From IMG/VR virus record IMGVR_UViG_3300028888_000002: 64,000 nt of DNA. One strand, 5' to 3'. Shown piece after piece: positions 1,775 through 53,038 of the stretch; within the stretch, counting starts at the first letter, position 1; each line of letters opens with the position of its first letter. The position numbers were made by a program, and so were the translations under genes. This DNA comes from a virus (taxonomy: Duplodnaviria > Caudoviricetes). The notes beneath the pieces were generated by a model. It did no database searches. It was given only the letters and a program-made list of their open reading frames with translations, and was not told the origin of the DNA.

Positions 1775-2926
1775 ATGGCACTTAAACAGATTACTGCCAA
1801 AGATTTTAAGGATGCCGTTAGCAGTCTTACAAACGGCTACACCTGTTGGCATAAGTTACTCGGTCGCACCGACGCAGGCACGGAATTAGTTTTCGTGATT
1901 GGTTGGTCCGACGCAGGTTACGACGAAGACGACGCAAAGCAAAACGGATATGCCGATGGTAGATATACTATTTGCTCCAAGATTGCGTGTCAGTCCCGAT
2001 ATAACGGTAGTCAATCCGACTACGACGGTGACTTTGAAATGCCGTATGACAAGGAAACAGGCGACGTTTGGGACACTGACACTATGGTGTCTAACAACGA
2101 ATCCGATTGGGAAACCGACGCAGCTACTTACAACAAGGACGCACAGGCTATTTGGGACACCTACTGTGTCCCCGATGAAGACGGTTTCACTGCGTTAGAC
2201 GCTTTGTTTGAGTCCAAGAAATCGTCCGAAGCAAAGAAGCATACCTGTTCTATGCAGAAGAAAAAGGAAAGCCTTGCAAAGAAGACTGAAATGGTTCGTC
2301 CCGAAGACCCCGACGAACTTAAAGTTGGAAAATACACGGCAGACGTTTTGACCGCAGACGGTGATTTTATCTTGTCATTGCCCGCTTTCTATGACGACGT
2401 TGCTGAAACTGTCAAGGCTGCAAAGGACTACTTGCAGGAAGAATCCGATTATGTTAAGGACACAGGTCTTGTTCCTAGCAAAATCCACGTAACTACGGTT
2501 GTTGCTAAACGTGGTTGGAATATGCCACAGTTCGTTAAGGACGTTGACTTGAACGCTACCGAAGCGAAGAAGCCTGTTTGCTCTATGCAGAAGAAAAAGG
2601 AAAGCCTTTCTGCGAAGAAGTCCAAGAAGTGCGAAGGCTTGATGGACGACTTGCCGTATGACGCACCCGTAGCCATTGAAAGTCTGTGTGCCGAAATTAT
2701 GAGCCACACCGACGCATTTACCATTGAAGACGCAGACGTGGCTGAAATGTGCGGTAAGTGGTATATTCGTGATTACGCAAATGGTTCTACCGCAGCACAT
2801 AACGAAGACGAATTTGTTGACGAAGTTCTTGCAGGTCTTTCGGGCAGTCCCGTGGACGGCTCCCCGTTCGGTGCAGCCGAAGCCGAAGGATATGCTAGGA
2901 AGATTTACAACGAAGTCGTTGCTTAA
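1775..2926 (+). CDS. Three-module putative cargo polyprotein with two internal tag B copies
   Basis: Linkers FESKKSSEAKKHTCSMQKKKESLAKKTE and EAKKPVCSMQKKKESLSAKKSKKCE separate acidic domains. Confidence 0.75.
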   Translation: MALKQITAKDFKDAVSSLTNGYTCWHKLLGRTDAGTELVFVIGWSDAGYDEDDAKQNGYADGRYTICSKIACQSRYNGSQSDYDGDFEMPYDKETGDVWDTDTMVSNNESDWETDAATYNKDAQAIWDTYCVPDEDGFTALDALFESKKSSEAKKHTCSMQKKKESLAKKTEMVRPEDPDELKVGKYTADVLTADGDFILSLPAFYDDVAETVKAAKDYLQEESDYVKDTGLVPSKIHVTTVVAKRGWNMPQFVKDVDLNATEAKKPVCSMQKKKESLSAKKSKKCEGLMDDLPYDAPVAIESLCAEIMSHTDAFTIEDADVAEMCGKWYIRDYANGSTAAHNEDEFVDEVLAGLSGSPVDGSPFGAAEAEGYARKIYNEVVA

Positions 2927-2952
2927 AGAAATCCTACGACAAAATTATCAAG

Positions 2953-2979
2953 GTGCCCCGATTGTTCGGGGCACTTTTT
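2953..2979 (+). terminator. Rho-independent terminator
   Basis: GTGCCCCGA-ttgt-TCGGGGCAC followed by T tract. Confidence 0.8.
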
Positions 2980-3007
2980 GTATGCACGTTTTATTTCGCA
3001 CAAATTA

Positions 3008-3075
3008 AATATAATAGATTACCTAATTTATATAACAAATTACCTACAACATATAACTAGGTAACTTGTTATATT
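3008..3075. promoter_or_regulatory. Cluster of three TAGGTAA(T/C)(T/C)T(G/A)TTATAT boxes (two reverse, one forward) upstream of head genes
   Basis: Reverse copies about 3008-3025 and 3029-3046, forward copy 3058-3075; same motif as the early promoter spacer/-10. Confidence 0.65.
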
Positions 3076-3274
3076 TGACATTTTTTGTCATTTTATTTAT
3101 AACTTTTTTAAAATTGCACAAAAATTTTATTATATTCTGTTGTCAAGGGAGGGCATTTTCCCTGCCAATACTTGTCCGTAATTTTTATTGCAGACAAATT
3201 CCCTTGTAGGAGGGTGGCTTTCGCAGGCTACCTCTAACAAACTAAAAGATAACCCTATCAAGGAGAGCATTATT

Positions 3275-3772
3275 ATGCTTAAATTCCGTAAGAAACTCCG
3301 TGAAGACGACAATATCGTTGAAGTTGGCGACGTTAAGTTGGACGCTAAAGAATCCGAAGTCGTGTTCGCAGACAAAGACAAGGACATCCAGGTTGTCGTT
3401 TCCCCCGACCCCGAAAACGAAAACTCTGTGACCGTCGCAGTTCTTTCTAACTCCAACGACGACGTGGAAGACGAAGAAGTTCTCGGCTCCGCTTCCGTTG
3501 AAGGTAGTGAAGATAAAGGTGCTGAAGAATCCCGCAAGGCTGCTCGTCGTGAGGCATTCCGTAAGCGTCTTGAAGCCCGTCGTTCTGCAAAGAAGTCCCC
3601 CGCACCCGCCCGTAACGAGGCTCGTGTCCAGGCTTTCCGCAAGCGACTTGAAGCCCGTCGTGCTGCAAAGCAAGCAGAAGGTAAGACTTCTACTTCCACA
3701 GCCGATGCCCGTAAAAAGGCTATCGGTGAAGCAAGGGCAAAATTCCGTTCCAAGATTGGCAAGAAAGCCTAA
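3275..3772 (+). CDS. Probable prohead core/scaffolding protein
   Basis: Immediately upstream of MCP; AGGAG RBS before ATG 3275; acidic N half, basic repeated EAFRKRLEARR helices; N-terminus MLKFRKKLRE-D. Confidence 0.6.
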   Translation: MLKFRKKLREDDNIVEVGDVKLDAKESEVVFADKDKDIQVVVSPDPENENSVTVAVLSNSNDDVEDEEVLGSASVEGSEDKGAEESRKAARREAFRKRLEARRSAKKSPAPARNEARVQAFRKRLEARRAAKQAEGKTSTSTADARKKAIGEARAKFRSKIGKKA

Positions 3773-3790
3773 CCAAAAGGAGAAGACATT

Positions 3791-5440
3791 ATGAAGACTT
3801 CTGTTGAAGAAATGTCCAATCAGAAATACAACCGCCTCGTAGAAAGCTACGAAGCCCGTTACAGCAAGCAGTTTGAAGCACTTGCAAAGTCCCCGTCGTT
3901 CAAGGGCACCTTGTCCAAGAACGCTATGTTCAACCTCGGTCAGCAGATGGACAACTACAAGCGTTACGAAAGTTTCGTGAACGAAAATTCCTCGGCTTCT
4001 AGCCTGGGTGTGTTGCCCCGTGTTGCTCTTGACCTTATTTCCGCTACCTACGCACTTTCTATCGCTCCGCAGCTTGCAAGTGTGCAGACGCTTGAAGAAT
4101 CCCAGGGTCTTATCTACTTCAAGAAGACCTTTACCCACGGCTATCCGCTGACTGCACAGGAAGGACTTCAGCAGCTCCCCGAAGACCGTTGGATGGGTGC
4201 CGACGGCAAGTTTGAAGGCGACAAGACCTTTGCGGGTGCTTGGAAGAAGTGGCTTGACACCCGTGGTCGTCCCGCTGACAGTGGCGAAGGTGACTTGGAT
4301 GCTGCTACTCTCGCTGCCAAGAACTTTGACGCTGTGACTTTCACCGCCCTCAAGGGTTGGCAGGCTTCCCCGACTGCATATATGTCCGAACGTCAGTTCG
4401 CTATTGCAGCCGACGGCAAGGCTACCATTAAGTATGGTGTTGGCAATCTTCGTTGGAACACCCCGATTAACGTCCGTCTTGTTGACAAGAACGGCAACAT
4501 TGAAGACATTGTTGGTGTCTGTGGTGGTCCTGGTCAGCTCCCGACCTTCTACGGTAAGTTGTCTGTTACCGCTGCTGCTGTTGGTCCCGACCTTGTTCTT
4601 ACCATTCCGACAGGCTACCAGGGTGGCGTGACTTATGACGTTGACTTTGAAAAGGCTCCCGACGTTCCTGCTATTGAATACGCTCTTGACAACAAGGTTG
4701 TCAGTGCCGAAATCATTGGCTTGAAGGAAATGATGGGCACGTTCAAGTCTTTCCAATTCAACAAGCGTTTTGGTAAGGCTGCGTCCGACGAAGTTCTTGC
4801 TGACCTTACGGGTCATATGGCTATGGCTGAAAGCGAAAAGATTCTTGCAGCCTACGTCCGTTGTGCTAACAAGTGGAAGCCGATTACCTGGAATCTTAAC
4901 AAGACCGCAGGTATCAGCGAATTTGAACACCGTCAGTCTTTCCTGTATGCTATCCAGGCTGCTTCTGCTGCTATCGGTAGCCGTGCAGGTAAGGGTCACG
5001 CCAACAAGATTGTCGCAGGTTACGTCGCTTGTCAGTATATTGCGTCCCTCCCTGGTTTCCGTCTTGCTCCGCAGACGAACCTTGTTGGTCCGCACGTCTA
5101 TGGCACTCTTGAAAACGAAGGCATTACTGTTATTCGCTCCAACACTATCGTGGCTCCGAACGAAGTTATCTGTGCTTACAGCTCCGACAACAGCCCGTTT
5201 GAAGCACCTGTCGTGTGTGCAACGTATATGCCTGTGTTCTTGACCGACACTATGCCTGTCGCAGACAATCCGTTCCAAACGCAGCGAGCAATCGCTTCCT
5301 GGAAGGCGATTGAACCTGTCGTGGCTGAATTTGTGCAGCGTATCGTTATCACGAAGGATGCCGAAGCACCTGCCGACGTGAACGTGTTCCTTACTACCAC
5401 CCCGAACGGTGGCAGCGGTAGCGGTTCTAGCAACGGCTAA
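3791..5440 (+). CDS. Major capsid protein, T4 gp23-like
   Basis: 549 aa; segment LISATYALSIAPQLASVQTLEESQGLIYFKK parallels the gp23 MVRR..NLIA.DI.GVQPM..PTG.VF region; C-terminal ATYMPV..DNPFQ..AIAS; likely propeptide ending FVNE; strong codon bias; terminator follows. Confidence 0.85.
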   Translation: MKTSVEEMSNQKYNRLVESYEARYSKQFEALAKSPSFKGTLSKNAMFNLGQQMDNYKRYESFVNENSSASSLGVLPRVALDLISATYALSIAPQLASVQTLEESQGLIYFKKTFTHGYPLTAQEGLQQLPEDRWMGADGKFEGDKTFAGAWKKWLDTRGRPADSGEGDLDAATLAAKNFDAVTFTALKGWQASPTAYMSERQFAIAADGKATIKYGVGNLRWNTPINVRLVDKNGNIEDIVGVCGGPGQLPTFYGKLSVTAAAVGPDLVLTIPTGYQGGVTYDVDFEKAPDVPAIEYALDNKVVSAEIIGLKEMMGTFKSFQFNKRFGKAASDEVLADLTGHMAMAESEKILAAYVRCANKWKPITWNLNKTAGISEFEHRQSFLYAIQAASAAIGSRAGKGHANKIVAGYVACQYIASLPGFRLAPQTNLVGPHVYGTLENEGITVIRSNTIVAPNEVICAYSSDNSPFEAPVVCATYMPVFLTDTMPVADNPFQTQRAIASWKAIEPVVAEFVQRIVITKDAEAPADVNVFLTTTPNGGSGSGSSNG

Positions 5441-5465
5441 TTGCTTAACTCCCTGTTGAGTGAAG

Positions 5466-5496
5466 ACACCCCTGCGTAAAGCGGGGGTGTTTTTTT
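5466..5496 (+). terminator. Rho-independent terminator after MCP
   Basis: ACACCCCTGC-gtaaa-GCGGGGGTGT plus T tract. Confidence 0.85.
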
Positions 5497-5569
5497 ATAG
5501 GGGGGTTGTCCGAAGTTGAAAAAATTTTATTATTTTTATTGACGATAAACTTCAAATGGGGTAATGCTT

Positions 5570-5701
5570 ATGGCAGAAGAAACCACCGCACCCGATTCTT
5601 ATTCTTACCTGGCTTACATTTTGGCTATGTATGCCGACGAAGAACAGCGTGACGAAACCCTGTGGACGGGAAACTTCACGGGCGATGTTCTTCCGTTCTA
5701 G
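5570..5701 (+). CDS. 43-aa small protein (absent from ORF track)
   Basis: MAEETTAPDSYSYLAYILAMYADEEQRDETLWTGNFTGDVLPF; GGGG RBS; phage-like codons. Confidence 0.55.
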   Translation: MAEETTAPDSYSYLAYILAMYADEEQRDETLWTGNFTGDVLPF

Positions 5702-5735
5702 CGTATAACAATTTTTCCAAACAAGGGACACCCGT

Positions 5736-6686
5736 ATGTCTAACAAGAAATTCAAGATTACCGTTAAAGAAAGCAAGAAGTCCGAGGGTCTTCCCCCGAA
5801 GCGTTTGGGCAGCAAGCGTCAATATCGTTCCCGTGCGGACCTTATTAACAAGATGAAGCAACTCGGAGCCGTGGAAATCACGACTAGCAAGCAGTTCAAC
5901 GACATTAAGAACTCGCAGTGGCTCCATACCGCAGGTTACGCCCTTGACACCAACGGCAACCTTGTGGCACAGTCCTACTACGGTGACAAGGACGGCAAGT
6001 GGTATTACACTTCCACCCGCAACTTTGATAGCGACTACCTTCCCGAAAGCAAGCAGCACGAAAACCGCACAAAGGAAGAAGAAGTCACTAATATCTTTAA
6101 GGGTATGAAAGAATGGGCTACCAAGTGGTCCAACTCCGACAAGGACCGCAAGACCATTGCAGACAATCTTGACCTTGAAGCAGTCCAGGAAAATATGTCC
6201 GATATTGTTGAAATTTTGGACAATAACTTTGAATGGGACGGTTACGGGTTTAAGTTCGTTGTGGTTGGCGATTACGAAGACGACGACACCCGTGACGAAG
6301 CCGAAGCAAATCAGTGGAACAGTTGCTATGGCGTTTGTGAAGAAATTGCAGACCTTATAGGCATTCCCAATGAAGGTCACGTTATTGGTGAAATGAATAC
6401 CTATTTTTGGGAAGACATTGAAGCGGTTTGGCGTGACGACGAAAGCAAGAAATCCGAAAGCCTTTCGCTCAAACAGAAAGAACTTAAAGATATGGCACGT
6501 TACGGTGAAGCCGAAGACATTACTACCATATCCGACGCAGAAGCAAAGGAACTTCGCAAGAAGGGCATTGAAACGGTGGGTGTTAGCCGTGGGACCTACG
6601 GAATGAACGGTGCCTTGCTCCGTGACAAGGACGGCAAGAAATACGTGATTACCGCCCGCAGCTCTAACCTGTTCTACTTTGTATAG
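5736..6686 (+). CDS. Three-module putative cargo polyprotein, tag A
   Basis: MSNKKFKITVKE-SKKSE-G; internal linkers LPESKQHE and DDESKKSES; modules 1 and 3 resemble each other. Confidence 0.8.
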   Translation: MSNKKFKITVKESKKSEGLPPKRLGSKRQYRSRADLINKMKQLGAVEITTSKQFNDIKNSQWLHTAGYALDTNGNLVAQSYYGDKDGKWYYTSTRNFDSDYLPESKQHENRTKEEEVTNIFKGMKEWATKWSNSDKDRKTIADNLDLEAVQENMSDIVEILDNNFEWDGYGFKFVVVGDYEDDDTRDEAEANQWNSCYGVCEEIADLIGIPNEGHVIGEMNTYFWEDIEAVWRDDESKKSESLSLKQKELKDMARYGEAEDITTISDAEAKELRKKGIETVGVSRGTYGMNGALLRDKDGKKYVITARSSNLFYFV

Positions 6687-7616
6687 AATTTTTTAAATAA
6701 AGGAAAAACTCTTATGACTAAAACATTCACCTGCTCTATGCAGAAAAAGAAAGAAAGTTTTGCGAAGAAGTCCGAAGCAGCCGAAATCAAGGACAAGCAG
6801 TATTACCTTGATATGTTTGACAAGGCATACAAGGAATGCGTCCAACTTGACATTGACAATGGCGGTAATGGCGAGGGTTGGGCAGATTACTTTACCGACA
6901 CAAAAAATTATGGGGATTTCACTCAAAAAGAAGCCGACGAAATTGTTGGCTATTATATGGAGTTCCACCCCGAAGCCGATGAGGAACCCGATAGACCTTA
7001 CAGGGATTGGTTGGATAATACGAGGGGTCTTGAACTTACTCCGTTGGACAAGGAAATCACCCGTATCTTGAAAGCCCTGTATGCCCCTAATGAATCCACG
7101 AAGTCCGAAGGCGTTGAAGCCTTGAAAGACAAGGTTGTGTCCGACGGCACCTTGAAGCCCGAAGACCTTATTCCGAAGTTCCTTAATGCCTTGAAGCACG
7201 ACGAAACTGCTCACTCCAAGTTCTTGAAGGACTATCCCGAAATCCTTGAAATTCAGTCCTGGGACGACGTGGACGACGAAACGAAGTCTATGCTTGTGGA
7301 CGAACTTACCGACGCACTTAACGGTATTGCACCCGACGGATATTTCTTTGGTGCGTCCGATGGCGACGGAGCCTGCTTCGGCTTTTGGAAGGTTGACCCC
7401 GACGAAAGCAAGAAGTCCGAGGGTGCGAATGCCCTACCAACTAAAGAAGAAATGAAACGTGTGGTTGACGGTTTAAAAAAAGGCTATGTCCACCCAAAGT
7501 GTTGCTGTCCGATAAAAACTCCAAAAAATGGCTAAAAACAGCATTTAACCCACAGACCCCATAAATTGCTATATTTGTATTGAAAAAATATAGTTTAATG
7601 GGTAGAACATAACTCA

Positions 7617-8594
7617 ATGGGTAATCTTATGAGCAATACAAGCAGCATGATATCTGTTCAGGATGTCTTGAAATGTCTTCACGAACACGGTGTACAAGGA
7701 AACTCCGCCAGGATGGAAGTGGTCAATATGCTAGACCATAAACGGGTAAATACCAACTACTGGTATTCGCCAGAATCAATAGTCAGGCAGTTGACCGATA
7801 CTATAAGGGATTATCTTACCGGCCTATGCGGCGAAGTATCCGAACCGAAGAAAGCTACGCTGAGCAAGCTGAAATTTGAACTGAACAAGGCGGAAGACCG
7901 AGTTGTAATTTATCTTGCTGATGAAGTCATTGGTCACATTTTCTGGTGCAACGATGAGTATAATCTGTGTTGGGAAGCTCACAACACCAAAAAACCAGAA
8001 CAACAGTTTGACACTTGGAAATTTTCCGGCCACTTTGAACTTGATACATTGATGGAGAAAATCACCACTGTTGTTGAGGCAATATCCAATGGAGATTGTA
8101 AGGTAATGCCAGTGGGTGAAACCGATGAATATGACATCAATAGCCGTGAAGCGTATGATGCCGCCATTGCCAAGATAAAGGCACATGTCGATGATGAAGT
8201 TGGGCGTGGTGAATATGATATCGTTTCATTAGTAGAGGAAGAAAAACAGTATTATAAAGCGTCACTTGCATACATCAAGTACCTGGAAGAAACCCTTGCC
8301 AATACACAATCTCTCGTGATTGCGTACGGTGAGAAGATTACTGAACAGAAAGATTCCCTGCTCAATATGTGCGCCAGACTAGGCAAGATGGGCTACTTGG
8401 CTTACCATAATATCCAGTCGAAGATGACCGAAGTGTTTGGTGACGAAGAAGGAGCACAACGGGCCGCCATCAAGAAGGAACAGTGGAAGAATGTCGAACG
8501 CAAGTGCAAGGAGACGGTTGAACGGAACAACCGTCCGATTGAACTGACGGTCGGCGACAAGCATGTCAGTCCAAAGGATTTAGGTTGGTACTGA
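7617..8594 (+). CDS. IS passenger gene, unknown function (coiled-coil C half)
   Basis: 325-aa ORF inside the TIRs, convergent with the transposase; contains palindromes the phage avoids; exact start uncertain. Confidence 0.75.
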   Translation: MGNLMSNTSSMISVQDVLKCLHEHGVQGNSARMEVVNMLDHKRVNTNYWYSPESIVRQLTDTIRDYLTGLCGEVSEPKKATLSKLKFELNKAEDRVVIYLADEVIGHIFWCNDEYNLCWEAHNTKKPEQQFDTWKFSGHFELDTLMEKITTVVEAISNGDCKVMPVGETDEYDINSREAYDAAIAKIKAHVDDEVGRGEYDIVSLVEEEKQYYKASLAYIKYLEETLANTQSLVIAYGEKITEQKDSLLNMCARLGKMGYLAYHNIQSKMTEVFGDEEGAQRAAIKKEQWKNVERKCKETVERNNRPIELTVGDKHVSPKDLGWY

Positions 8595-8595
8595 T

Positions 8596-9651
8596 TTATG
8601 CCGCCAACGGCAGAGGAATAGGCGGACGGAACATATAAGTCCACTTTGAACCATCGTAGATGGCCTCAGCATTATGGCGTTCCCATACAGATTCCTTGAA
8701 GTTGAAATCACCATCGGCGTAGTTGCGAAGATTATGCCATACCAAGTAGTTGTTGAGATACTTGGTAGCAACTCCGTGGAAGCGTTCCATGAATGTCTTT
8801 AGTTGACTATGATAGCCGTTGATGTGCTGGATTCCCAGCGTGCCACTGACACGCTGGGTAGATTTTAACTGCAATAGGTTGATGCCTTCCCGTTCCGCAA
8901 ACCCTACATACGCATTGTGCTTGTCGGTGCATAGAACCGCATCCGGTGAGATACGACCGGCGAACACGCTGGAAATGCTCCGCACCGATGCACGACCCAA
9001 GTTCGCAATCTGTGCGATGGACTTGCCGTCACGGTTGACCGCACACGGCACACATACCTTTTCCAATGAAATACCACGCTTTTTGGAGCGTTCGCCTCTC
9101 ATGTGAGGCTCACGGGGCATACTGAAGAACTGGCTCCGACTATGGTTACCCTTGAATGAAATACGGAAGAAGGTCTCGTCCGCTTCCACGATGCCATCCA
9201 GTTTCACCTTGGACTGCATTTCTTGCAGAGCATCCAGAATCTTGTGGCGGAGGAAGAAGGCGGCGTTCTTGGAAATACGGCACTCATAAGCCGTTGCCCT
9301 GACCGTCATACCGTGCATCATACAATGCACATAGCGGAGATAGGTGTCAAGCGGCAGCTTGGCTCCATGGAAGATGGTGCGGGTCGCATAGGTGAATGAC
9401 TTACCGCAACCCTTGCATTGAAACCGCTGGTGCCCGGTCTTGGTCTTGCCGTTCTTCTTGACATCCACTAGACCACAATGCGGACAGCACACGCCATTGT
9501 GGAAGCGGTACTTACCAAGGAACTCTTCCATCGTGGATGAGTCGATGATTTCGGTCATCTGCGGAGGCATGCCGAGCATCTGCATGAAGCGCATCTTGTC
9601 CGATTTGGACAAGGTGTTGTACATCTGGTAAACAAGATTTACTTCGGACAT
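8596..9651 (-). CDS. tnp: IS1595-family transposase
   Basis: Zn ribbon CPHCG..CKGC, HTH region, LDGIVEADETFF, LCTDKHNAY, IQHINGYHSQLK (N in place of the last E), RFHGVATKYLNNYL; AGGAGG RBS before ATG 9651. Confidence 0.93.
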   Translation of the reverse strand: MSEVNLVYQMYNTLSKSDKMRFMQMLGMPPQMTEIIDSSTMEEFLGKYRFHNGVCCPHCGLVDVKKNGKTKTGHQRFQCKGCGKSFTYATRTIFHGAKLPLDTYLRYVHCMMHGMTVRATAYECRISKNAAFFLRHKILDALQEMQSKVKLDGIVEADETFFRISFKGNHSRSQFFSMPREPHMRGERSKKRGISLEKVCVPCAVNRDGKSIAQIANLGRASVRSISSVFAGRISPDAVLCTDKHNAYVGFAEREGINLLQLKSTQRVSGTLGIQHINGYHSQLKTFMERFHGVATKYLNNYLVWHNLRNYADGDFNFKESVWERHNAEAIYDGSKWTYMFRPPIPLPLAA

Positions 9652-10421
9652 AAGACCTCCTTCTATAATGGAAATATAGCAAAACAGGAGTGTCATTTTA
9701 TGTCAATAGCAAACCCCTATGTAAAGCTTGGATTACATAGGGGTGAAATGGCAAAATTGGACTAATTTCAGCGATTTTTCAGACCAGCAACACTTTGGGT
9801 GGACATAGCCTTAAAAAAAGACAAGGCTTTCTCTCGTCGTTATTCCGTTGATGATAGCGTTTTGTATGGTGCTATTGATTCGGAGTGGTCGCCTGTTATG
9901 TCTATCAAGGATAAAAAGACAGGTAAGACTTACGCTACTATCTTGTTTGACGGGGATGGTAAAATTCGTATTAACGGATTTCCGTCTTCCCCGATTGAGG
10001 GGGATAGTTCCGATATAGATTGGATTTTGGAAGTTTTGCGTAATAAGAAGCCGTCCGAATCCAAAAAGTCCGAAGGCGTTGGTGGCAAAATCAAAATGGG
10101 CATTGACTACAATATGTTTATGCGTATGTGTGCGTCCGCAGCCTATCTTGACGAAAACGAAGACTATTGGGACGCTCTTTGGGAATACTATTCCGAAATG
10201 GGCGAAATTGAAGACGCTTGTGAGTTCTTTGATAACTTGTTCCAATACACGTCCTGGTGCGACGAAGACGAAGTGTATGACGAATACCTGGACGATTCGT
10301 ATAAGGACGGCACAAAGAGCAAGGCTGAATGTATTGAAGCTGCCGTTGACGCAGGCGACCTTGACGTTTTTAAGACGGACAAGGGCTATCTTGTAATTCA
10401 GTAACAACCCGTGAAATGCAG

Positions 10422-10448
10422 AAGCACCCCTTAATTGGGGTGCTTTTT
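10422..10448 (+). terminator. Rho-independent terminator
   Basis: AAGCACCCC-ttaatt-GGGGTGCTT plus T tract. Confidence 0.8.
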
Positions 10449-10496
10449 CGCATACGGCATTAACTAGACAGCCACGATTTTATTTATATTTCGGAT

Positions 10497-11216
10497 ATGC
10501 TTGAACCCGATAATCAAAAAGTTTATTTCATAGAGAACGACGACTTGTCTAAACTCTATCCCGACGCAGAAGACGCACAGGACAAAGCCCTGGGCGTTCT
10601 TGAAGGTGAGCAGTCCTTTATTATCGTGGACGGTGAACAGCTCCCCATAGGCTACGATAGCGAAAAGGACGCTATCCTGGTGGAAGACAGCAGCGTTTCC
10701 GATAGCGTGATTAAAAAGGCTCGCAAGCTGCTTGACCTGTTCGTGAAGAATGAACTGTTCGGGACCCGTGAAATTGAAAATGAAAACGGGTTTATGCCCG
10801 ACGACGATTACCCTATGTCCGTGAATGTCACGGACGGTAATTCGTATCGCACGGTTTCTTATTACCCGTCTATGCAGCAAATGGCGAATGCACAGGTCCA
10901 TTTGTGGACGGGAAGCGGGTATAGCACCCACGTATTCTATGTGAACGTCCATAATGGCGACCGCAACCCCGAAGAAGCCCTGGAAACGGCTGTGGTCCTT
11001 GCCGAAAAGATTGACAAGTCCGTATTGTTAGACGTTGCCGAAACCGAACAGGCTATGGCAGACGACGGTCATTACGACAAGGATAGCGGTGAGGGCGACG
11101 CTGTTTTTGAAGAAACATACATTTACGTTGACGCTACAATGTTGGGGGCTACGCAGCCTTACTACGTGTATGCAGAAAACTTCGGAGTGTTGCCCAATAA
11201 GGGCGAACTCGCATAA
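10497..11216 (+). CDS. Acidic hypothetical protein in the head/cargo cluster
   Basis: 239-aa ORF, D/E-rich, no obvious tag. Confidence 0.7.
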   Translation: MLEPDNQKVYFIENDDLSKLYPDAEDAQDKALGVLEGEQSFIIVDGEQLPIGYDSEKDAILVEDSSVSDSVIKKARKLLDLFVKNELFGTREIENENGFMPDDDYPMSVNVTDGNSYRTVSYYPSMQQMANAQVHLWTGSGYSTHVFYVNVHNGDRNPEEALETAVVLAEKIDKSVLLDVAETEQAMADDGHYDKDSGEGDAVFEETYIYVDATMLGATQPYYVYAENFGVLPNKGELA

Positions 11217-11230
11217 ATGTGAGGCAGACT

Positions 11231-12049
11231 ATGGCTAAAATGAAAATCAAGGTCCACGAAAGAAATTCCGATAATGACCCGCAGCGTTTCTACGATAAAT
11301 TGAACCCTGTTGAAAAGAGCCGTTTTGACGGGCTTGCCGACACGGTTGAAGCCCTGGTTGGTGTGTTTGATGAAAACGGGAAACTGTCTAAACCGCAGCA
11401 AGACCAACTCAAGGAAGCCAGGGACACAATTTACGTGTTTGGCTATGCAGCCAGGGGCTATGTAAGTCTTGCCGACGAAGTTCTTGCCAACTATGGCGTG
11501 GAACCTTTGCTTGACCCGAACGAACCTGTCTTTGGCGAATCCAAAAAGAACGAAGACACCGACGACGCAGCCGAAGCACTCGCAAAGGAACTAGGGGTTT
11601 CTGTTGACAAGGTTTCGGATAGCTCCCAGGACTATGACTATTATGAACCCGATTACACGTATGACGTTGAATTGACGAACGGCAAGACTGCTACTTACCT
11701 TGTGTATGATAATCAGCAGTCTGCTATTGACGCTGCTGCGGACGATTTGGGTGAACGTTTCCACGATGACAGTAGCATACTTGGGGCAGCTATTGAATAC
11801 TTCGGCTTCGGGACGCTTTCCGATTATTTGAACGGATATGACGACGACGAAATGGCTGAACTTGAAAGTCTTTGTGACGACGTGAGTTCCGAAGAATTTG
11901 CACGTATGTTGCAGCAGAAGGGCGGTGTGGATTACCGTGGGTTTGCTGAATACAACATAGGCGAACTTGGGGCTGCTTGGCACCTTGCCGATTATGACAA
12001 CAAAGAAGTTGAACTTGAAAACGGTATGCTCGCATATCGTGTAGATTAA
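11231..12049 (+). CDS. Two-module putative cargo polyprotein, tag A
   Basis: MAKMKIKVHE-R; linker FGESKKNED; acidic second domain ending HLADYDNKEVELENGMLAYRVD. Confidence 0.78.
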   Translation: MAKMKIKVHERNSDNDPQRFYDKLNPVEKSRFDGLADTVEALVGVFDENGKLSKPQQDQLKEARDTIYVFGYAARGYVSLADEVLANYGVEPLLDPNEPVFGESKKNEDTDDAAEALAKELGVSVDKVSDSSQDYDYYEPDYTYDVELTNGKTATYLVYDNQQSAIDAAADDLGERFHDDSSILGAAIEYFGFGTLSDYLNGYDDDEMAELESLCDDVSSEEFARMLQQKGGVDYRGFAEYNIGELGAAWHLADYDNKEVELENGMLAYRVD

Positions 12050-12061
12050 GGGAGTAAGTAT

Positions 12062-13567
12062 ATGTCTTTGAAAATCAAAACACACAAGTTTGAAAGCCGT
12101 GTAGCCCCCGCTGCACAGCGTCGTCCGTTTGGTCGTATGGCTGAATCCAAAAAGTCCGAAGCTACAAGTTTCGGTGCGGGTATGTCTAAACGCACGGACC
12201 TGTCCAAAATGCGTAATTTGGGTGAAGTCATAGACGTTCTTGAAGAACACAAGAAACTTATGGAAAACAAGGCAAAGGATTTGTCGCAAAGCAAGGAAGA
12301 CTTGCAGGCTGCGATTAAGTCCCTTAACGAATTTTCCAAACACGTCCTGTTCTTGAAGCAGCAGTCCGTAAAGGGTATCAAGGACGCACTCACGTTCAAC
12401 AAGTCCCCCGAAGTCAAGGCTGCTGCCGATATTGAAAAGCACTTGAAGAATGCTCTTAAAATCCTTTACTCCGATTATGAGAACATTCCCGATGTTACTC
12501 AACTGCTGACAGTTGTTGACAGTCGTTATGCTACCCGTGGTGACAAGGTTGTGACCGCCTGGGTTGACAATGCGACCCGTGCTATTGAAGTGGACGCAAA
12601 GACGATTAAGGACAGCATCGCTGCGGGCGATATGTCCGAAGACGACGTTGTGAAACTTGTGACGGTTACTTACGCTACCCACGGTGTCAAGAACAAGGAC
12701 ACCGTTGAAAAGGTAACGCCCGTCCTTGAACGTATGAACGCTTTGCTTGCTTCGGCTCCGAAGATTGAAGAAGCGGTCATTGACCCGAAGGAATTTAAGG
12801 AACTCCGTGACCTTGTGGAACAGATTGTTAAGGAAGCGTCCGAACCGACGCTTACTGTCAAGACTGCTATCACTACGCTTTCAAAGGGCGAACTCGCAAC
12901 CGTCCCGTCCGAAGCGTTTGTGTCCGAGGGTCTGCTTGACAAACTCAAAGACCTTGTGGCTTCTCTCAAGGACAAGATTTCGTCCCTGTGGAACTCGTTT
13001 ACTTCCCTGTTCTTCAACCTGGAAGACGAAGCCCTTGAATCGGCTGAAACGTTTGCCGAAGTTGAAGAAGGCTTTGCCATTATGGGCATTGTCGTTGAAT
13101 CCTACGTCGCAAAGAGTGTTCCGCTCGGCAAGCAGTTTGAAGTCCTTACGAAGTCCGTGCTTCACTGCTGCGATAAACTTGTCAAGGACGCTTCCCTTGC
13201 GGGCGAATTTGACGACGAAGTGATTTACGCAGAAGAAGCCGTCAATAATGCCGTTGAGTCGTTCCAGGCTCTCGGTGAAGCCTGCAAGACTTTGAAGAAC
13301 GCATTGTCGTATCACAAAAACGAAGACAATATGAACGTTATCGGTATTCTTGCGGACGCTATCACGCAGATTGTGAACGACGACAATGGCAGTGCCGATA
13401 CGGAAGGTGGCGACGACTCCGAAGACGACGAAAATCCTGTAATCCGTGACGTTGAAAAGGAATATAGCCCCGCAGGTGGCGAGGGCGGTGAAGAAGGTCC
13501 CGAAGCGAACGGTGGCGAGAACGAAGCCCCGAACCCCGCTGAAATGGGCGAACCCGAAACGTTCTAG
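12062..13567 (+). CDS. Large helical putative head-internal protein, tag A
   Basis: MSLKIKTHKFE-S, MAESKKSEA linker, SEGLLDKLKD motif, acidic low-complexity tail. Confidence 0.75.
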   Translation: MSLKIKTHKFESRVAPAAQRRPFGRMAESKKSEATSFGAGMSKRTDLSKMRNLGEVIDVLEEHKKLMENKAKDLSQSKEDLQAAIKSLNEFSKHVLFLKQQSVKGIKDALTFNKSPEVKAAADIEKHLKNALKILYSDYENIPDVTQLLTVVDSRYATRGDKVVTAWVDNATRAIEVDAKTIKDSIAAGDMSEDDVVKLVTVTYATHGVKNKDTVEKVTPVLERMNALLASAPKIEEAVIDPKEFKELRDLVEQIVKEASEPTLTVKTAITTLSKGELATVPSEAFVSEGLLDKLKDLVASLKDKISSLWNSFTSLFFNLEDEALESAETFAEVEEGFAIMGIVVESYVAKSVPLGKQFEVLTKSVLHCCDKLVKDASLAGEFDDEVIYAEEAVNNAVESFQALGEACKTLKNALSYHKNEDNMNVIGILADAITQIVNDDNGSADTEGGDDSEDDENPVIRDVEKEYSPAGGEGGEEGPEANGGENEAPNPAEMGEPETF

Positions 13568-14041: not shown

Positions 14042-15205
14042 ATGAATTTTACCGAAAATGCAAAGACTAAATTTTGGGCTGACCTTTCCGCAGGTGTAAA
14101 GTCCACTTTTGGACATTCTCTCGGTGAAGCGTTCCACATTGACCAATACAAAAGTGGTCGCTTCTCGTTTACCGAATCCGTGACGGGCGGTCCTGGTGCT
14201 GTCACACGGCTTATGGACTCTTTAAAGGCTTCCTCGCCTGTCATTGAGTCGGTTCGTATGACACCGATTTCCAACGGCTACAACGCTACATACAACGTGT
14301 CGGTTGAATTTAACCCCGTCAAGGCTGAATCCGTTTACAGCGACGGCAAGGACAACGTTAAGACTTTTGAAAAGGACGGCAAGACCTACGTCGTCGGTAG
14401 CGACGGAAACGCTATTCCTGTTGACGACCCCGACAAGTTTATGGATAATGTAAACAAGACCACGGGTTCTAGTTACAAGAAAAAGTCCGAAGACGCAGAC
14501 CAGGTGGATATGGACGGGTTCCCGATTGAACTTGACTCCGTTATCGCTCTCGCAAACGAAGCCCTTGACGGCACGGGCGTTACTATCGCCAACGAAGGCG
14601 GTAAGCTGCTTGTCCGTGGTGCGTCCGAACTTGTGAAGCCGACCCAGGAATTTGTCCCCGAACCGTATTACGGTGCCGACTCTATTGACGGTGGCTACGA
14701 CGAAGAAACGGGCGACCTGGCTCTTACCATTCCCGAATATCCGACGGAATACGAAATTGAACAGCTCCGTTCGTTCCTTATTTCTGCCGTCAACTGTATT
14801 ATGGACCACGCCCTGTGCAAGACTGCCGATTGCTCCGACGACGATTGGTGCAACGCTATGGCAGAAGCCGAACCGTGCGAAAGCTACGTTCACAAGTATG
14901 GCTACCTGGGCGAAGCATTTGTCGGTAATGACAAGAAGCAGGTTGCTATCCTGGTGAAGTCGCTCTTGCAGGAAAATCGCCTGGAAGACGCAAAGAAAGT
15001 CGCCACGAAGCATATGGGTGCTGAAATGGCAGAAGGCTTCACCCGCAAGTATGCACCCGAAAAGGTGGAAGAAAAACATCAAGCGGTCATTACAGACGAA
15101 ATGGCTCTGCTTGACAGAATGCACGAATCCGCTATGAACCGTGCCCCCGAAAAGGTGGTGGAAATGGATTCCCTCGTCGCCAAAAATTTAACACAGGAGA
15201 AGTAA
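14042..15205 (+). CDS. Probable virion/prohead-associated protein
   Basis: AGGAG RBS; directly before sheath; many ES/EA dipeptides, KKKSEDA linker-like site. Confidence 0.65.
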   Translation: MNFTENAKTKFWADLSAGVKSTFGHSLGEAFHIDQYKSGRFSFTESVTGGPGAVTRLMDSLKASSPVIESVRMTPISNGYNATYNVSVEFNPVKAESVYSDGKDNVKTFEKDGKTYVVGSDGNAIPVDDPDKFMDNVNKTTGSSYKKKSEDADQVDMDGFPIELDSVIALANEALDGTGVTIANEGGKLLVRGASELVKPTQEFVPEPYYGADSIDGGYDEETGDLALTIPEYPTEYEIEQLRSFLISAVNCIMDHALCKTADCSDDDWCNAMAEAEPCESYVHKYGYLGEAFVGNDKKQVAILVKSLLQENRLEDAKKVATKHMGAEMAEGFTRKYAPEKVEEKHQAVITDEMALLDRMHESAMNRAPEKVVEMDSLVAKNLTQEK

Positions 15206-15208
15206 ACT

Positions 15209-17473: not shown

Positions 17474-17476
17474 TCT

Positions 17477-18079
17477 ATGCCACAGAATATCAAGATTAAC
17501 GAACTGCTTGGCGATGACTTCAAAGAGTATAACTACGCAGTTACGTCTAATTGGCGTATTGACTTTTCGGGCAGTAATGAGTTCAAGAAACTGCTTGAAG
17601 GTGCCCCTGGTGACGACGGGCACCCTGCGGTGTTGAAGCAACTGTCTTTTGCGTGTCATTCGGATTTTCAGTTTGAAGCCGACGTTGAATACGCAGAAGC
17701 CGAAATCAAGGGCATTCACATTTCGCAGGCTGCTTGGCAGGACCGCTTCATTGACTCGCTGCCGATTGACGTGTATGAAAATATGGACCACCGTGTTTTC
17801 AAGGCTCTCGTCCAGGCTGCTAACAAGACTGCGGGCTACTTTAAGCACCGTGATATTGCTGCGAAGACGGAATACACCTTTGACGGTATCACGCTTACCG
17901 CTTTGGGCAACACCGTTGACGGTTCCGAACCGTCTAACGCAATCGTGTATCACTTGAAGGGTGTGCAGATTAAAAAGGTGCAGTCCCCGAACTACACCTC
18001 CGACGCTGCCGAAATCGGCTCCGTGCAACTTGAACTCAAGGCACACGGTTGGACGATTGGCGACGACGGCACGACCTAA
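17477..18079 (+). CDS. Tail tube protein
   Basis: 200 aa directly after the sheath; beta-rich, tube-like C-terminus (YHLKGVQIKKV..SVQLEL). Confidence 0.7.
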   Translation: MPQNIKINELLGDDFKEYNYAVTSNWRIDFSGSNEFKKLLEGAPGDDGHPAVLKQLSFACHSDFQFEADVEYAEAEIKGIHISQAAWQDRFIDSLPIDVYENMDHRVFKALVQAANKTAGYFKHRDIAAKTEYTFDGITLTALGNTVDGSEPSNAIVYHLKGVQIKKVQSPNYTSDAAEIGSVQLELKAHGWTIGDDGTT

Positions 18080-18100
18080 TCGCCCCGTGTAATTGTTGCA

Positions 18101-18136
18101 AAATGCCCCGCTCATTTCGTATGGGTGGGGCATTTT
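18101..18136 (+). terminator. Rho-independent terminator
   Basis: AAATGCCCCGCTCAT-ttcgt-ATGGGTGGGGCATTTT. Confidence 0.7.
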
Positions 18137-47814: not shown

Positions 47815-47817
47815 ATT

Positions 47818-49047: not shown

Positions 49048-49062
49048 GCAAAGGAAAACCCT

Positions 49063-49341: not shown

Positions 49342-49344
49342 GAT

Positions 49345-49665: not shown

Positions 49666-49668
49666 CGT

Positions 49669-50250: not shown

Positions 50251-50369
50251 CGAAAAATAAACTATATTTGTAGTTAAGTGTTTAAGCCTGCGGGTGACTT
50301 CGTTATGTAGGCACCCTTGTCCACCTGCCTAGCGGACATACCCCGTATAGCACACTACCTTACGCAACG

Positions 50370-50402
50370 CCCCTGCGGACTAACACACCGCAGGGGTATT
50401 TT
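50370..50402 (+). terminator. Rho-independent terminator
   Basis: CCCCTGCGG-actaacaca-CCGCAGGGG plus TATTTT. Confidence 0.65.
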
Positions 50403-50422
50403 AATTATTTTACAATTTGCTA

Positions 50423-50451
50423 TTGACAGCTATCGGGTAATTTGTTATATT
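50423..50451 (+). promoter_or_regulatory. Early promoter P9
   Basis: TTGACA-17-TATATT. Confidence 0.85.
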
Positions 50452-50485
50452 TGGGGTAGAAACCACTTAAACCGAGGATAGCTGA

Positions 50486-50680
50486 ATGAACCCACACGAA
50501 CACGCCTTTGAATTTTGCCTGTATATCCAACAGTGCGGACGTGCTGTCGCTGCCCGAAACTTCACCGTCAAGGGCGACGACATTGAAGACGCTGCCGACA
50601 ATGCCGTGGCAAAGGGTATGCGTATCTGTAAGCGTGAGAAATGGAACTACGGGGGCGTGGAATGTTGGGGTATGGTGTGA
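50486..50680 (+). CDS. Small hypothetical protein
   Basis: CCGAGGA RBS. Confidence 0.7.
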   Translation: MNPHEHAFEFCLYIQQCGRAVAARNFTVKGDDIEDAADNAVAKGMRICKREKWNYGGVECWGMV

Positions 50681-50765
50681 CCGCCCCTATCCGCACTTAC
50701 GGAAAATAATCTATATTTCCTGTTGAATAATTTAACCCACGTTGCCGTGGTATTAGGAGTTTAAT

Positions 50766-51623
50766 ATGAAACTAGGCGATGTTTACAAATCGTATGACCT
50801 TGTGCGTGAACGTGCTGCACGGGTGAAGAAAGCCACGGGGCTTGATTGGGAAATCGGTGGTGGCTCCCAGGTAAACCTTTGGGTTACGCTTAATGGCGGG
50901 GACACCCTGTCCGAACAGGCACAGGATGGTATCTGTGCGTCCCTGGTAAAAGTATTTGACAAGGCTGCTCCGAAAGGACTGACGGCTGCGTTGGCAAAAC
51001 AGGGCACTTGGGATAAGGCAAAGATTGGGGCAAGCAACAATCAAGTGTGGTGTGACTTCCCGAATAAGGTTATGAGCCAAATATCCGTGGAAGACTTTGT
51101 TGAACTTTGCGATGCTCTTATGCAGCAGGGTAGTGCTGAAATACAGAAAGTGGCGGGTAAGCCGTCCGAATCCCGTAAGCCTAATTGCTCTATGCAGAAG
51201 AAGAAAGAAAGCCTGCTCAAAAAGACCGAAACGGTTTGGGACGGGGAAGTGCTGACCTTTTCGTTTGACGGTGTGAACGTTATGGTTCACGAATGGTCCG
51301 AAGAAGGCGAGGGTCGCTACGTCCAGGAATACACTATGGACGTTCGTGGTTCGTTCAATGACCTTACGGGTGTTATCAATTTGATTGCTGACAAGGCTAT
51401 CTATGACGACGCTTACAAGAACCCCGATAATTGGACCGTCCTTGACGTTAGCAATGGTTCTGTGACGCTCTCTGCTGCAACTACGCAGGACGAAAACGGT
51501 GACAGCGACCCCGACGGAAACTTTATTGCGGACTTTACCGTAGTTGTGAACTGCACTCTTACGAAGCCTGCACACCAAACTGAAATACACAATGCGTTGT
51601 CCGACGCTAAAATTCAGCTTTAA
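50766..51623 (+). CDS. Two-module putative cargo polyprotein with internal tag B
   Basis: Linker KPSESRKPNCSMQKKKESLLKKTE; AGGAG RBS. Confidence 0.78.
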   Translation: MKLGDVYKSYDLVRERAARVKKATGLDWEIGGGSQVNLWVTLNGGDTLSEQAQDGICASLVKVFDKAAPKGLTAALAKQGTWDKAKIGASNNQVWCDFPNKVMSQISVEDFVELCDALMQQGSAEIQKVAGKPSESRKPNCSMQKKKESLLKKTETVWDGEVLTFSFDGVNVMVHEWSEEGEGRYVQEYTMDVRGSFNDLTGVINLIADKAIYDDAYKNPDNWTVLDVSNGSVTLSAATTQDENGDSDPDGNFIADFTVVVNCTLTKPAHQTEIHNALSDAKIQL

Positions 51624-51643
51624 CGTTTAACCCAGGAATGCGT

Positions 51644-53038
51644 ATGTCTAAATTGACTATCAAGAACAACCCCGTCCAGGAAGCAACTGAACCCGCTGCC
51701 TTTGGCAAGGCTTACCAAGATTTCGTCAATCGTTGTTGGACGGACCATAAGCCTAACTATTCCGTAAACGCAATCAACTTCCTCCTGGACTGTGCCCACA
51801 TTGCCAACGGCACTAGCGTAAAGGGCTTGCCACAGCAGGGCTTCAAACTGACCAAAGCGGGCAACGTGGATATTGTTGGGGACTGCCTGCACTTGTGCTA
51901 TAACGAAGTCAATGGCAAGAAAGCTGTTGATATTTGGCTTAATCCCCATACGCAGAAAGCCCTCGTTGACCTTTACGGCTTCAACCCCGAAGACCCGTAT
52001 AATTCCACGCATAAAGAATTTTCTGCCCGTGACTACACGTCCGATGACTTCTGCGAATTTATTGAGAATTTGCCGAACTACAAGGGCGAATCCAAAACGG
52101 CTGAATCCCGTAAGTTGACTATCCGTGTTCACGAAGCCAAAGAAACCCTCCAGGACCGCTTCGGTTCGTTCCAGGATTTCCAGGATTACTGCAACGGTAA
52201 GGTCCACGATAAACTTGTGGAGCTTCTAGGCGAAGAACAGGGCGACACCTGCTTCCGTGAAATTACTCAACCCGAACTGACCTACAAGGACAAGCGGGGT
52301 CATAAACTCGTCCATAAGAACGACAACCCTACCCATCTTAATGTTCTGCAAGAATGGTGGAAGCAGAATTTTGCTGCCGACGACCTGGACGGCTGCTGCG
52401 ATTCTCTTGCCGATGGCTATGCACAGGACCCGAAACCTATTCGTATCGTTACTCCCCGCAGGGGCAAGGACGTTACGGACAAATGGAAACTCCAACGTGA
52501 ATCCAAAAAGTCCGAAGCTGCCGACGAACAGGTGGAACACGGTGAGGAATGCCACTTGTTCATTGAAGACGACCCGAACTACCAGGTATCGTTCCGCAGC
52601 GATAACGGTCACGTTTACACGTTCTACGTGCGAGCCGACGACCCGCAGGACGCTCTTGACAGGGCATATCACGAATTTGGCGTGAACTACAATATGTCTA
52701 TCAAGGGCGAAGCCCACAGTGAAAGTGACATTCCGCAGGGCGAGGAAGCAGTTGAAGTGGGAACAAAGTATGCCCCGAAGGTGAACGTCGCTGTTGACCC
52801 GTGGGACGGCAAGGGCGTTCGTGTCCTTTATATCCCCGAAATCTATTTGTCCTATATCGTAAACGGGGACCCTAGCGGTATGGAAGAAGAAGACATAGCC
52901 GACTGCGACAAGTTCGTGGACCGCTATGTTAAGAAGGGATATGATATGGCTTCTGTGTTCCCCGTATGCGGACCGCAGGGCGAATGGTGGGACCAAAACG
53001 TTCAAGGCGACGTGCTTTGTTCCACTACGGTTGACTAA
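51644..53038 (+). CDS. Multi-module putative cargo polyprotein (tag A-like start, internal tag A)
   Basis: MSKLTIKNNPVQE-A; KGESKTAESRKLTIRVHE-A; QRESKKSEA; last module IPE.YLSYIVNGD.SG.EEEDI. Confidence 0.78.
   Translation: MSKLTIKNNPVQEATEPAAFGKAYQDFVNRCWTDHKPNYSVNAINFLLDCAHIANGTSVKGLPQQGFKLTKAGNVDIVGDCLHLCYNEVNGKKAVDIWLNPHTQKALVDLYGFNPEDPYNSTHKEFSARDYTSDDFCEFIENLPNYKGESKTAESRKLTIRVHEAKETLQDRFGSFQDFQDYCNGKVHDKLVELLGEEQGDTCFREITQPELTYKDKRGHKLVHKNDNPTHLNVLQEWWKQNFAADDLDGCCDSLADGYAQDPKPIRIVTPRRGKDVTDKWKLQRESKKSEAADEQVEHGEECHLFIEDDPNYQVSFRSDNGHVYTFYVRADDPQDALDRAYHEFGVNYNMSIKGEAHSESDIPQGEEAVEVGTKYAPKVNVAVDPWDGKGVRVLYIPEIYLSYIVNGDPSGMEEEDIADCDKFVDRYVKKGYDMASVFPVCGPQGEWWDQNVQGDVLCSTTVD

Follow-up and report, generated by a model that had tools for sequence, protein, structure and literature searches.

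An E-S-K-K-S-E linker between small modules encoded around the capsid gene of a jumbo myovirus: a probable cleavage site of its gp21-family prohead protease

The proteins IPI, IPII, IPIII and Alt of phage T4 carry a capsid-targeting sequence and undergo processing by gp21 (Mullaney and Black 1996, via PMC9026906, PMC5694885, PMC3012670). The cuts in T4-type processing come after a Glu that follows a short motif (PMC9026906), and in phiKZ and SPN3US this motif is (S/A/G)-x-E, i.e. with Ser, Ala or Gly at P3 (PMC10052503, PMC9026906). For SPN3US gp245 and phiKZ gp175, C-terminal self-cleavage just past the catalytic domain is established, and it has been suggested for T4 gp21 (PMC10052503, PMC5694885). 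The polyvalent proteins found in phages and conjugative elements, in turn, are predicted to be packaged and delivered together with the DNA, with division into parts predicted for some (PMC5512222). Here we describe a 64,000-nucleotide stretch of DNA, referred to in its entirety as the window, from IMG/VR virus record IMGVR_UViG_3300028888_000002 (Duplodnaviria; Caudoviricetes), in which proteins encoded around the major capsid gene consist of small modules, here called beads, joined by the hexapeptide E-S-K-K-S-E. We consider it probable that this linker is a site read by the prohead protease of the same phage lineage.

The window covers the head-tail module of an uncultured and very divergent large (jumbo) myovirus. 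Its major capsid gene (3791–5440) matches the major head protein family phrog_138 (E 1.2e-8), and the capsid protein matched 15 IMG/VR loci (viral contigs, numbered with the prefix L below) at 66–93% identity; a faint match to PF07068 (Gp23) was seen on the capsid genes of distant relatives. Whole-genome statements are based on two capsid-bearing relatives, G001 and G002, of 215,686 and 215,310 bases (CheckV 99–100% complete), synteny between the former and the window extending over ~151–212 kb of G001. No near-identical match was found when window positions 5000–13000 were compared by megablast with 50,697 phage records. The carriers of the linker are ORFans on either side of the capsid gene, or genes further along that share one of two short tags: tag A, of the type M-x-K-I-K-V-H-E, and tag B, x-C-S-M-Q-K-K-K-E-S. 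Sheath, baseplate and other non-head genes are without linkers or shared tags. Genes are named below by their first base and lie on the plus strand unless stated otherwise.

All linker sites listed in a first-pass annotation of the sequence were recovered at their genes. Exact copies of ESKKSE lie on the plus strand at 5769–5786, 6441–6458, 7404–7421, 10057–10074, 12143–12160 and 52499–52516, each inside a long open reading frame (ORF), and the three minus frames of the window contain none. Variants are ESKKSSE (2210–2230), ESKQHE (6045–6062), AKKSE (within 6732–6776), ESTKSE (7092–7109), ESKKNE (11537–11554), SESRK (just before 51186) and ESKTAE (52088–52105). Among 111 plus-strand ORFs, the only pentapeptides repeated at least three times were pieces of ESKKSE (ESKKS, SKKSE, KKSEA, KKSEG), pieces of CSMQKKKES, and DEVLA, an unrelated pentamer present three times in the plus-strand ORFs of the window. 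The back-translated ESKKSE pattern was found 8 and 10 times in the forward and not once in the reverse direction in the two near-complete relatives, the reversed-pattern control gave no match in either genome, and the expectation by chance is ~0.02 matches per genome (an arithmetic estimate from rough residue frequencies). Even the loose form KK[SNKCT]E[ASG], searched across 329 G001 ORFs, picked out no gene other than tagged or polyprotein ones.

A larger sample comprises 221 distinct internal junctions, which are flanked upstream by 177 and downstream by 151 different 8-mers and share the pattern E-[S/A]-K-K-x-E followed by A, S or G. The six motif positions hold 2.4–3.9 bits of information, although the fifth is S in just 159 of the 221, while each of the eight positions upstream holds at most 0.55 bits. 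The residue after the second Glu holds 1.3 bits and is A, S or G in 74–77% of junctions; beyond it the values fall to 0.2–0.4 bits. Edges this sharp fit a site read by a trans-acting factor better than they fit a spacer. At the DNA level, the copies differ in their codons, with AGC or TCC for the first Ser and AAA or AAG for Lys, and at least 10 synonymous versions encode the linker peptide. This codon variation points to selection on the peptide, rather than on a DNA repeat alone.

The first-pass annotation had proposed that relatives would show module swaps with breakpoints at the linkers, and this is what the DNA blocks, the protein alignments and one cassette replacement reveal. Blocks of DNA homology between the window and G001 begin at 5769, 6446, 10056 and 12143, all of them linker positions. 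Likewise, of 143 distinct internal ends of high-scoring segment pairs (HSPs), 90 lie no more than 8 residues from a linker or tag, where 28 would be expected given the fraction of sequence that such zones cover; since HSP ends are not independent, the binomial p of 1e-29 indicates direction only. In locus L002, the orthologue of the 12062 protein carries an insert exactly at its linker, namely the first bead of the 6714 protein, the sequence there reading RRPFGRKAESRKNE followed by EAEIKDKQ. After a shared ESKT(A/G)E, the 51638 protein of the window continues into a tag A cassette, SRKLTIRVHE..., where its G001 orthologue shows SSMQKKKES..., a tag B cassette, together with another bead; the comparison of window 52088–52135 (ESKTAE) with G001 195534–196313 (ESKTGE) displays a clean cassette replacement at the linker. 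A 1265-residue ORF of G001 with six linkers corresponds in place to several shorter genes in the window, and the size differences among homologues of 316, 412 and 546 residues correspond to complete beads inserted from linker to linker. Half-linkers persist at gene ends, in proteins that start MKKSEANIEDL... and in one that ends ...ESKKSEA at the stop codon; such relics are found in proteins P0016, P0017, P0050 and P0058 and in L002 at ~15304. The bead carried by the ORFs starting with MKKSEA begins MANIEDL elsewhere. Modules are thus seen directly to be exchanged at a six-residue linker, and this is relevant to the way in which new phage genes are put together.

The beads themselves behave as autonomous units. 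An AlphaFold2 model of the 5736 protein, built on an alignment of 58 homologues from a collection of 5.8 billion proteins, has a predicted local distance difference test (pLDDT) score below 50 solely at residues 1–27, 96–109, 178–180 and 228–242. The three linkers, at residues 12–17, 104–109 and 236–241, lie inside the three long low-scoring segments, with folded beads between them, and no predicted domain spans a linker in this model, so that one of the refuting conditions set in the first-pass annotation did not arise. The proposal that linkers fall between distinct blocks is thereby borne out, together with the HSP and DNA block ends, in that they separate independently folding modules.

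It had also been suggested that several blocks occur as stand-alone phage genes, and this holds for three of them. The block GTLKPEDLIP...FGFW, residues 134–237 of the 6714 protein, has 2337 homologues at E ≤ 0.001 (representatives clustered at 50% identity), of which the best are mostly 92–115 residues long and end a few residues past FGFW. Linkers of the ESKK type are present in 38 of 47 long matches, as compared with one of 82 short ones. Folded alone, the bead gives a confident model (mean pLDDT 91.6). The family is phage-only and very large, and its members are usually ~100 residues with an acidic tail at the end. The second case is a 75-residue C-terminal module (SLSLKQKE...NLFYFV, 6459–6686), which is always the last bead in 55 database homologues and is preceded by 25 or more unrelated sequences, with a junction that nearly always reads (E-S/A)-K-K-S-E before S. 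Its model is confident (pLDDT ~90) and resembles a 68-residue protein of an uncultured siphovirus (template modelling score 0.93 by target, 42% identity). The fixed terminal place suggests an anchoring or loading role for this module, rather than one as cargo. Finally, relative L014 has the third bead of the 1775 protein as a gene of its own (131 residues, 2463–2858), with an N-terminal tag B and the start MAKFKCSMQKKKES, so that the internal tag in the window represents the earlier N-terminus of a fused gene. The same bead can thus be found in N-terminal, internal or C-terminal position, or alone.

Searches for function returned little. PHROGs, Pfam and PADLOC searches of all carriers gave only sub-threshold noise and no significant domain, apart from one PHROG of unknown function on the FGFW bead, the sole family match on any carrier. 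Neither the 5736 model nor the FGFW bead had a Foldseek match in the PDB at E ≤ 0.001 (best VIA Z for the latter, 4.7), and the Atlas matches of the FGFW bead were viral hypothetical clusters only. The missing PDB matches do not show that the bead folds are new.

The two tags recur on many otherwise unrelated genes. Tag A forms five N-termini in the window and nine in G001, and CSMQKK[KI]ES, the core of tag B, occurs five times in the window and seven times in G001; on the opposite strand neither was found apart from one minus-strand gene. CSMQKKKES is placed either at residues 4–7 of a protein or internally, just after a linker. In several genes (5736 and G001 160078) a linker directly follows the ~11-residue N-terminal tag, and in 12062 it stands further in. 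A domain spacer would be pointless directly after such a tag, and the layout resembles the targeting peptide plus cut site of T4 (PMC9026906). The assumption that one tag loads a whole polyprotein turned out to be too simple, as CSMQKKKES is found internally at 2246, 2579 and 51186 and the tag A sequence KLTIRVHE at 52112.

Upstream of the capsid gene, the first genes of the window encode a small tag A protein (112–381, with KLKIRVKE at 130–153), homologous in position to a tagged 91-residue gene after the G001 protease; a tagged head-module protein kept in relatives (393–1010, MALRIKIHE and then ESRQAE at 417–434); and a protein with N-terminal tag B (1052–1750, CSMQKKIESFKKNE at 1064–1105). 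The gene at 1775–2926 encodes a three-bead polyprotein with the linker ESKKSSE and two internal B tags, CSMQKKKESLAKKTE at 2246–2290 and a second from 2579; HSPs on this protein end at residue 144, and begin at 146 and 269. Immediately before the capsid gene, 3188–3772 encodes a helical, scaffold-like protein of basic/acidic composition, so named from position and composition only, for which no family match was found.

Downstream of the capsid gene, the 316-residue three-bead polyprotein 5736–6686 opens with tag A (KFKITVKE, 5748–5771), which runs into the first ESKKSE; ESKQHE and a second ESKKSE follow, and the last bead is the constant 75-residue C-terminal module. Polyprotein 6714–7535 carries tag B (CSMQKKKESFAKKSE, 6732–6776), bead 1, ESTKSE, the FGFW bead (7113–7424), ESKKSE and a short tail. 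A two-bead protein with one ESKKSE (9799–10404) has a C-terminal bead that is fused to different partners in relatives. It is followed by a tag A protein (11219–12049; KMKIKVHE, 11237–11260) containing ESKKNE, whose N-terminal bead ends at residue 110 in the L014 match, and by a conserved 501-residue head-module protein (12062–13567) in which a tag-A-like N-terminus, MSLKIKTHKFES, and ESKKSE precede a long helical body. Much further along, 50766–51623 encodes a two-bead protein with SESRKPN and then an internal tag B (CSMQKKKESLLKKTE, 51186–51230), and 51638–53038 a three-bead polyprotein with an internal tag A (KLTIRVHE, 52112–52135) straight after ESKTAE, and with ESKKSE further on.

A candidate reader of the linker was found in a T4 gp21-type prohead protease encoded by the phage lineage. 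The first-pass annotation had placed this gene outside the window, which is correct for its bulk, lying just upstream; the 3′ end, the last ~33 codons, occupies bases 2–103 of the window itself (plus strand), where tblastn gave 79% identity to residues 312–344 of P0001. This protein, the 345-residue product of G001 ORF 148715–149752, was spotted by eye in the ORF list of G001 from an NRN-RLY-like motif, beside which it has a VSSR motif, and was then confirmed by direct searches. It matches proteins of cultured phages (tblastn E-values, 1e-28 to 3e-20), among which several bear the annotation of a head maturation protease, or of a prohead core scaffolding and protease protein. Against Pfam Peptidase_S77 (PF03420) it aligns over profile positions 46–197 of 198 with E 2.5e-4, at 21 bits and hence under the curated cut-off of 27 bits, and precomputed PF03420 matches exist on many of its 70 database homologues. 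The T4 gp21 structure 5jbl was the best PDB match of the family profile (E 3.1e-5). A PDB search with the single sequence and a six-frame PF03420 search of G001 and G002 gave no match. Residues H87, S141 and D170 are invariant in an alignment of seven sequences including T4 gp21 and in 49 homologues; in 5jbl, the positions corresponding to the His and Ser are those mutated in the inactive crystal form, and the role of D170 as third catalytic residue is taken from the SPN3US/T4 triad (PMC5694885). Judged by this homology, P0001 is a predicted prohead protease of the T4 gp21 family (Peptidase S77).

The gene neighbourhood is of the same kind. In G001 the protease gene lies 5.4 kb upstream of the capsid gene, with tagged small genes and a scaffold-like gene in between, an order (protease, small tagged genes, scaffold-like gene, capsid) that mirrors T4 genes 21-22-23; in T4, portal gene 20 and core genes 67 and 68 precede these. 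Cultured relatives have the order terminase, a 525-residue gene or annotated portal, protease(-scaffold) and capsid, the portal being annotated in a Rhizobium phage. By position only, the 539-residue gene upstream of the G001 protease may be the portal gene.

The protease also bears the linker motif at its own domain boundary. Two residues past the last aligned residue of the catalytic domain it reads I-S-E-S-K-K-K-E-A, and ISESKK(K/N)E is found at the same position in all close relatives. Within this motif the Glu is invariant and the next Ser at least 90% conserved in 49 homologues, both aligning with I-T-E-S of T4 gp21; in distant protease clades Glu-Ser is retained and KK(K/N)E replaced. 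Loci L033 and L035, distant relatives with a 58–64% identical protease, have a compact protease-scaffold-capsid block without a cargo gene cluster and a protease without KK(K/N)E. Their head modules contain no ESKKSE linkers; one gene of L033 has a tag-like start, MLRIKLIEKKNES, resembling a tag plus half-linker. These two loci agree with co-occurrence of motif and linkers and are too few for covariation. At the end of the protease domain a linker joins no two cargo beads, and it is therefore best read there as a cut site. A predicted complex of protease residues 1–186 with a 41-residue linker segment of the 5736 protein gave no answer, with scores of 0.00 and 0.00 and no controls, and is used neither way.

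Taken together, the specificity of the observed motif, its placement between domains, the mosaicism, the family of the protease and the motif at the end of the protease domain lead us to favour, with somewhat better than even confidence, the reading that ESKK(S/N)E is the recognition and cleavage site of the phage's own gp21-family prohead protease, and that the carriers are capsid-internal cargo. Cleavage, the exact scissile bond, capsid loading, delivery and the effector role are the parts that we infer. In such a mechanism, proteins would be made late in infection as chains of small modules, from one to at least six in number, and the N-terminal tags A and B would address them to the core of the assembling prohead, as the 10-residue capsid-targeting sequence does in T4. 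Inside the prohead, the protease would cut after the Glu of K-K-x-E and before A, S or G, possibly with a second cut after the first Glu, thereby removing the tags and releasing each bead. The freed beads would remain in the head with the DNA, and presumably be delivered to the next cell.

With respect to the bond itself, the first-pass annotation had paired two Glu sites per linker. The junction statistics favour the second, KKxE before A, S or G, and do not give equal support to both: in the internal junctions, the residue two places ahead of the first Glu is less often aliphatic than one of K, A, P, Q or S. The most likely scissile bond is thus that between K-K-x-E and A/S/G, with an additional cut after the first Glu possible.

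Several points weigh against cleavage by this protease. The cleavage consensus of T4 gp21 is Leu/Ile-x-Glu, i.e. Leu or Ile at P3, a rule that fits only tag A (V-H-E) and the I-S-E of the protease. A cut at the linker implies Lys at P3 and P4, and P3 of the second Glu is indeed Lys in 221 of 221 internal junctions; this fits neither the T4 nor the phiKZ/SPN3US rule, and a changed specificity must be assumed. The N-terminus of the major capsid protein has no clear site of the ESKKSE type. Internal tags have been kept intact, which would be needless if a single N-terminal tag loaded the string. The linker codons, moreover, are more uniform than genome usage predicts, with TCC for the second Ser in 35 of 37 copies as compared with 33% genome-wide, so that the conservation may partly reflect identity by descent. 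Lastly, the label of effector, given to the beads at the outset, found no support, no module having a recognisable function in Pfam, PHROGs, PADLOC or fold searches; as no bead has a recognisable function or a relative of solved structure, the term is a conjecture by analogy with T4 IPI and Alt (PMC3012670, PMC9026906). Within the capsid protein, SKQFE-A at residues 25–30 was considered and retained as a weak candidate only, since the N-terminus is conserved throughout.

Of the alternatives, the one that survives best is that the linker is an uncleaved, flexible, charged spacer serving mainly as an 18-nucleotide recombination microhomology, the chains remaining intact multi-domain proteins, packaged or not. 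We regard this as unlikely, although DNA and protein homology blocks break exactly at the linkers, which are predicted to be disordered, and the codon uniformity is of the kind it calls for, one relative having an identical 18-mer in six of nine linker copies. Spacers seldom need six nearly fixed residues and a small residue after the last Glu, and microhomology does not call for at least 10 synonymous versions of one peptide, AGC versus TCC for Ser included. Neither does a spacer account for linkers after an 11-residue N-terminal tag or at the end of the protease catalytic domain, where no two beads are joined, or for half-linkers that persist as MKKSEA... at protein starts. Part of the idea stands in its own right, in that the breakpoints at the 18-nucleotide linker and the codon uniformity support the proposal of the first-pass annotation that linker DNA acts as a recombination joint.

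A trans-acting reader other than the prohead protease appears less probable still. The motif could be an address for the capsid core or for DNA binding, a Ser/Lys modification site, or the site of a host protease or second phage protease acting only after injection. Sharp edges would be expected of any recognition site, the K-K core is unlike known gp21-type sites, and the tags kept by internal beads suggest that each bead needs a signal of its own. Set against this, family searches found no second protease, kinase or other candidate reader near the genes, the motif ends in Glu plus a small residue as gp21-family sites do, and it is placed where the SPN3US and phiKZ proteases cut themselves (PMC10052503). 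Chance or low-complexity matches, conceivable since the carriers are rich in E, K and S, are refuted by the strand counts (8–10 forward in the 215-kb genomes, none on the opposite strand), by the empty reversed-pattern control, by the recurrence of the same six residues at 221 distinct junctions, and by persistence of the motif across phages with 66–93% capsid identity; we give this explanation practically no weight.

Prohead cleavage and recombination at the linker are compatible in one scheme. As every bead is bounded by one 18-nucleotide linker, recombination could swap, insert, fuse or split cassettes without harming their neighbours. We tentatively propose, at slightly less than even confidence, a plug-and-play cargo of tags and module cassettes in which the linker would be protease cut site and recombination joint at once, so that relatives re-assort, fuse and split capsid-loaded proteins that are delivered with the DNA. 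The protease would be bound to this code as well, by way of the linker motif placed where its own catalytic domain ends.

Were the linkers to be cut in the prohead, capsid cargo would be made in the manner of many eukaryotic RNA virus polyproteins, through a single standard protease site. How a giant phage carries, and quickly re-assorts, dozens of small ORFans acting at the onset of infection would then be explained; T4 IPI and Alt work at the first moment of infection. The combination of tag and KKxE would constitute a sequence rule predicting the packaged proteome of uncultured phages. Protease and linker would, in addition, form a defined protease-substrate pair, and the system would provide a natural template for packing several foreign proteins into a capsid.

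The remainder of the window is sparsely annotated. Besides the capsid gene, the tail sheath (15209–17473) and the baseplate hub (18602–19348), both identified by PHROG matches, almost no window gene has a family match in PHROGs or Pfam. An IS1595-family transposase (8596–9696, minus strand; ISXO2-like DDE domain, E 6.5e-11, plus a zinc ribbon) sits inside the cargo gene cluster, on the opposite strand and between the 7617 and 9799 genes, and has no counterpart at the corresponding place in G001. A search for its terminal inverted repeats gave nothing convincing, the best pair being 16 nucleotides (7566/9667). Open frames of 678 and 981 residues run antisense to the capsid and sheath genes (3242–5278 and 15188–18133, minus strand) and are probably by-products of codon bias; such frames mislead longest-ORF gene calling, and one concealed the protease gene in G001. 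GC skew changes from positive to negative near 52 kb (~52000–64000), where the ORFs are still mostly on the plus strand.

Compared with the described systems, the closest likeness is to T4. In both, unrelated small proteins share an N-terminal peptide of ~10 residues ending in Glu, a gp21-family serine protease is encoded between the gene at the portal position and the scaffold and capsid genes, the putative cut comes after Glu and before a small residue, and the cargo genes are diverse and fast-evolving. The cargo of T4, however, is single-module, whereas one ORF here holds up to six or more modules (1265 residues in G001), joined by one fixed hexapeptide, E-S-K-K-S-E, that would place Lys rather than Leu/Ile at P3; two different tags, moreover, persist inside the chains. 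PHROG and Pfam searches gave no sequence similarity of the carriers to T4 IPI, IPII, IPIII or Alt.

The proteases of phiKZ (gp175) and SPN3US (gp245), MEROPS family S80, are distant gp21 relatives that cut many head and ejection substrates after Glu at a three-residue motif, and the propeptides involved have several sites each (PMC10052503, PMC5694885). The phiKZ-like protease trims its own C-terminal extension where ISESKKKE sits here. In contrast to what is proposed for the present beads, long N-terminal propeptides are discarded in that type, with no release of several folded modules, and no standard linker or linker-bounded shuffling has been reported for it.

Polyvalent proteins (Iyer et al. 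2017, PMC5512222) likewise combine many unrelated modules in one polypeptide encoded beside virion genes. They differ in having recognisable enzyme or binding domains, with processing proposed by zincin-like MPTase domains of their own (PMC5512222), whereas the modules here are ORFans without a built-in peptidase, joined by a fixed linker that matches a trans-acting head protease. The conflict-related domains typical of them (ART, MPTase, ParB, nucleases) were found in no bead by Pfam, PHROGs or PADLOC, the term 'linker' is absent from Iyer et al. 2017 (PMC5512222), and the literature searched held no description of ESKKSE or of such tailed-phage polyproteins. The system is set apart from the T4, phiKZ-like and polyvalent types by a fixed hexapeptide between ORFan beads, basic residues at P4–P3, internal tags and linker-bounded shuffling.

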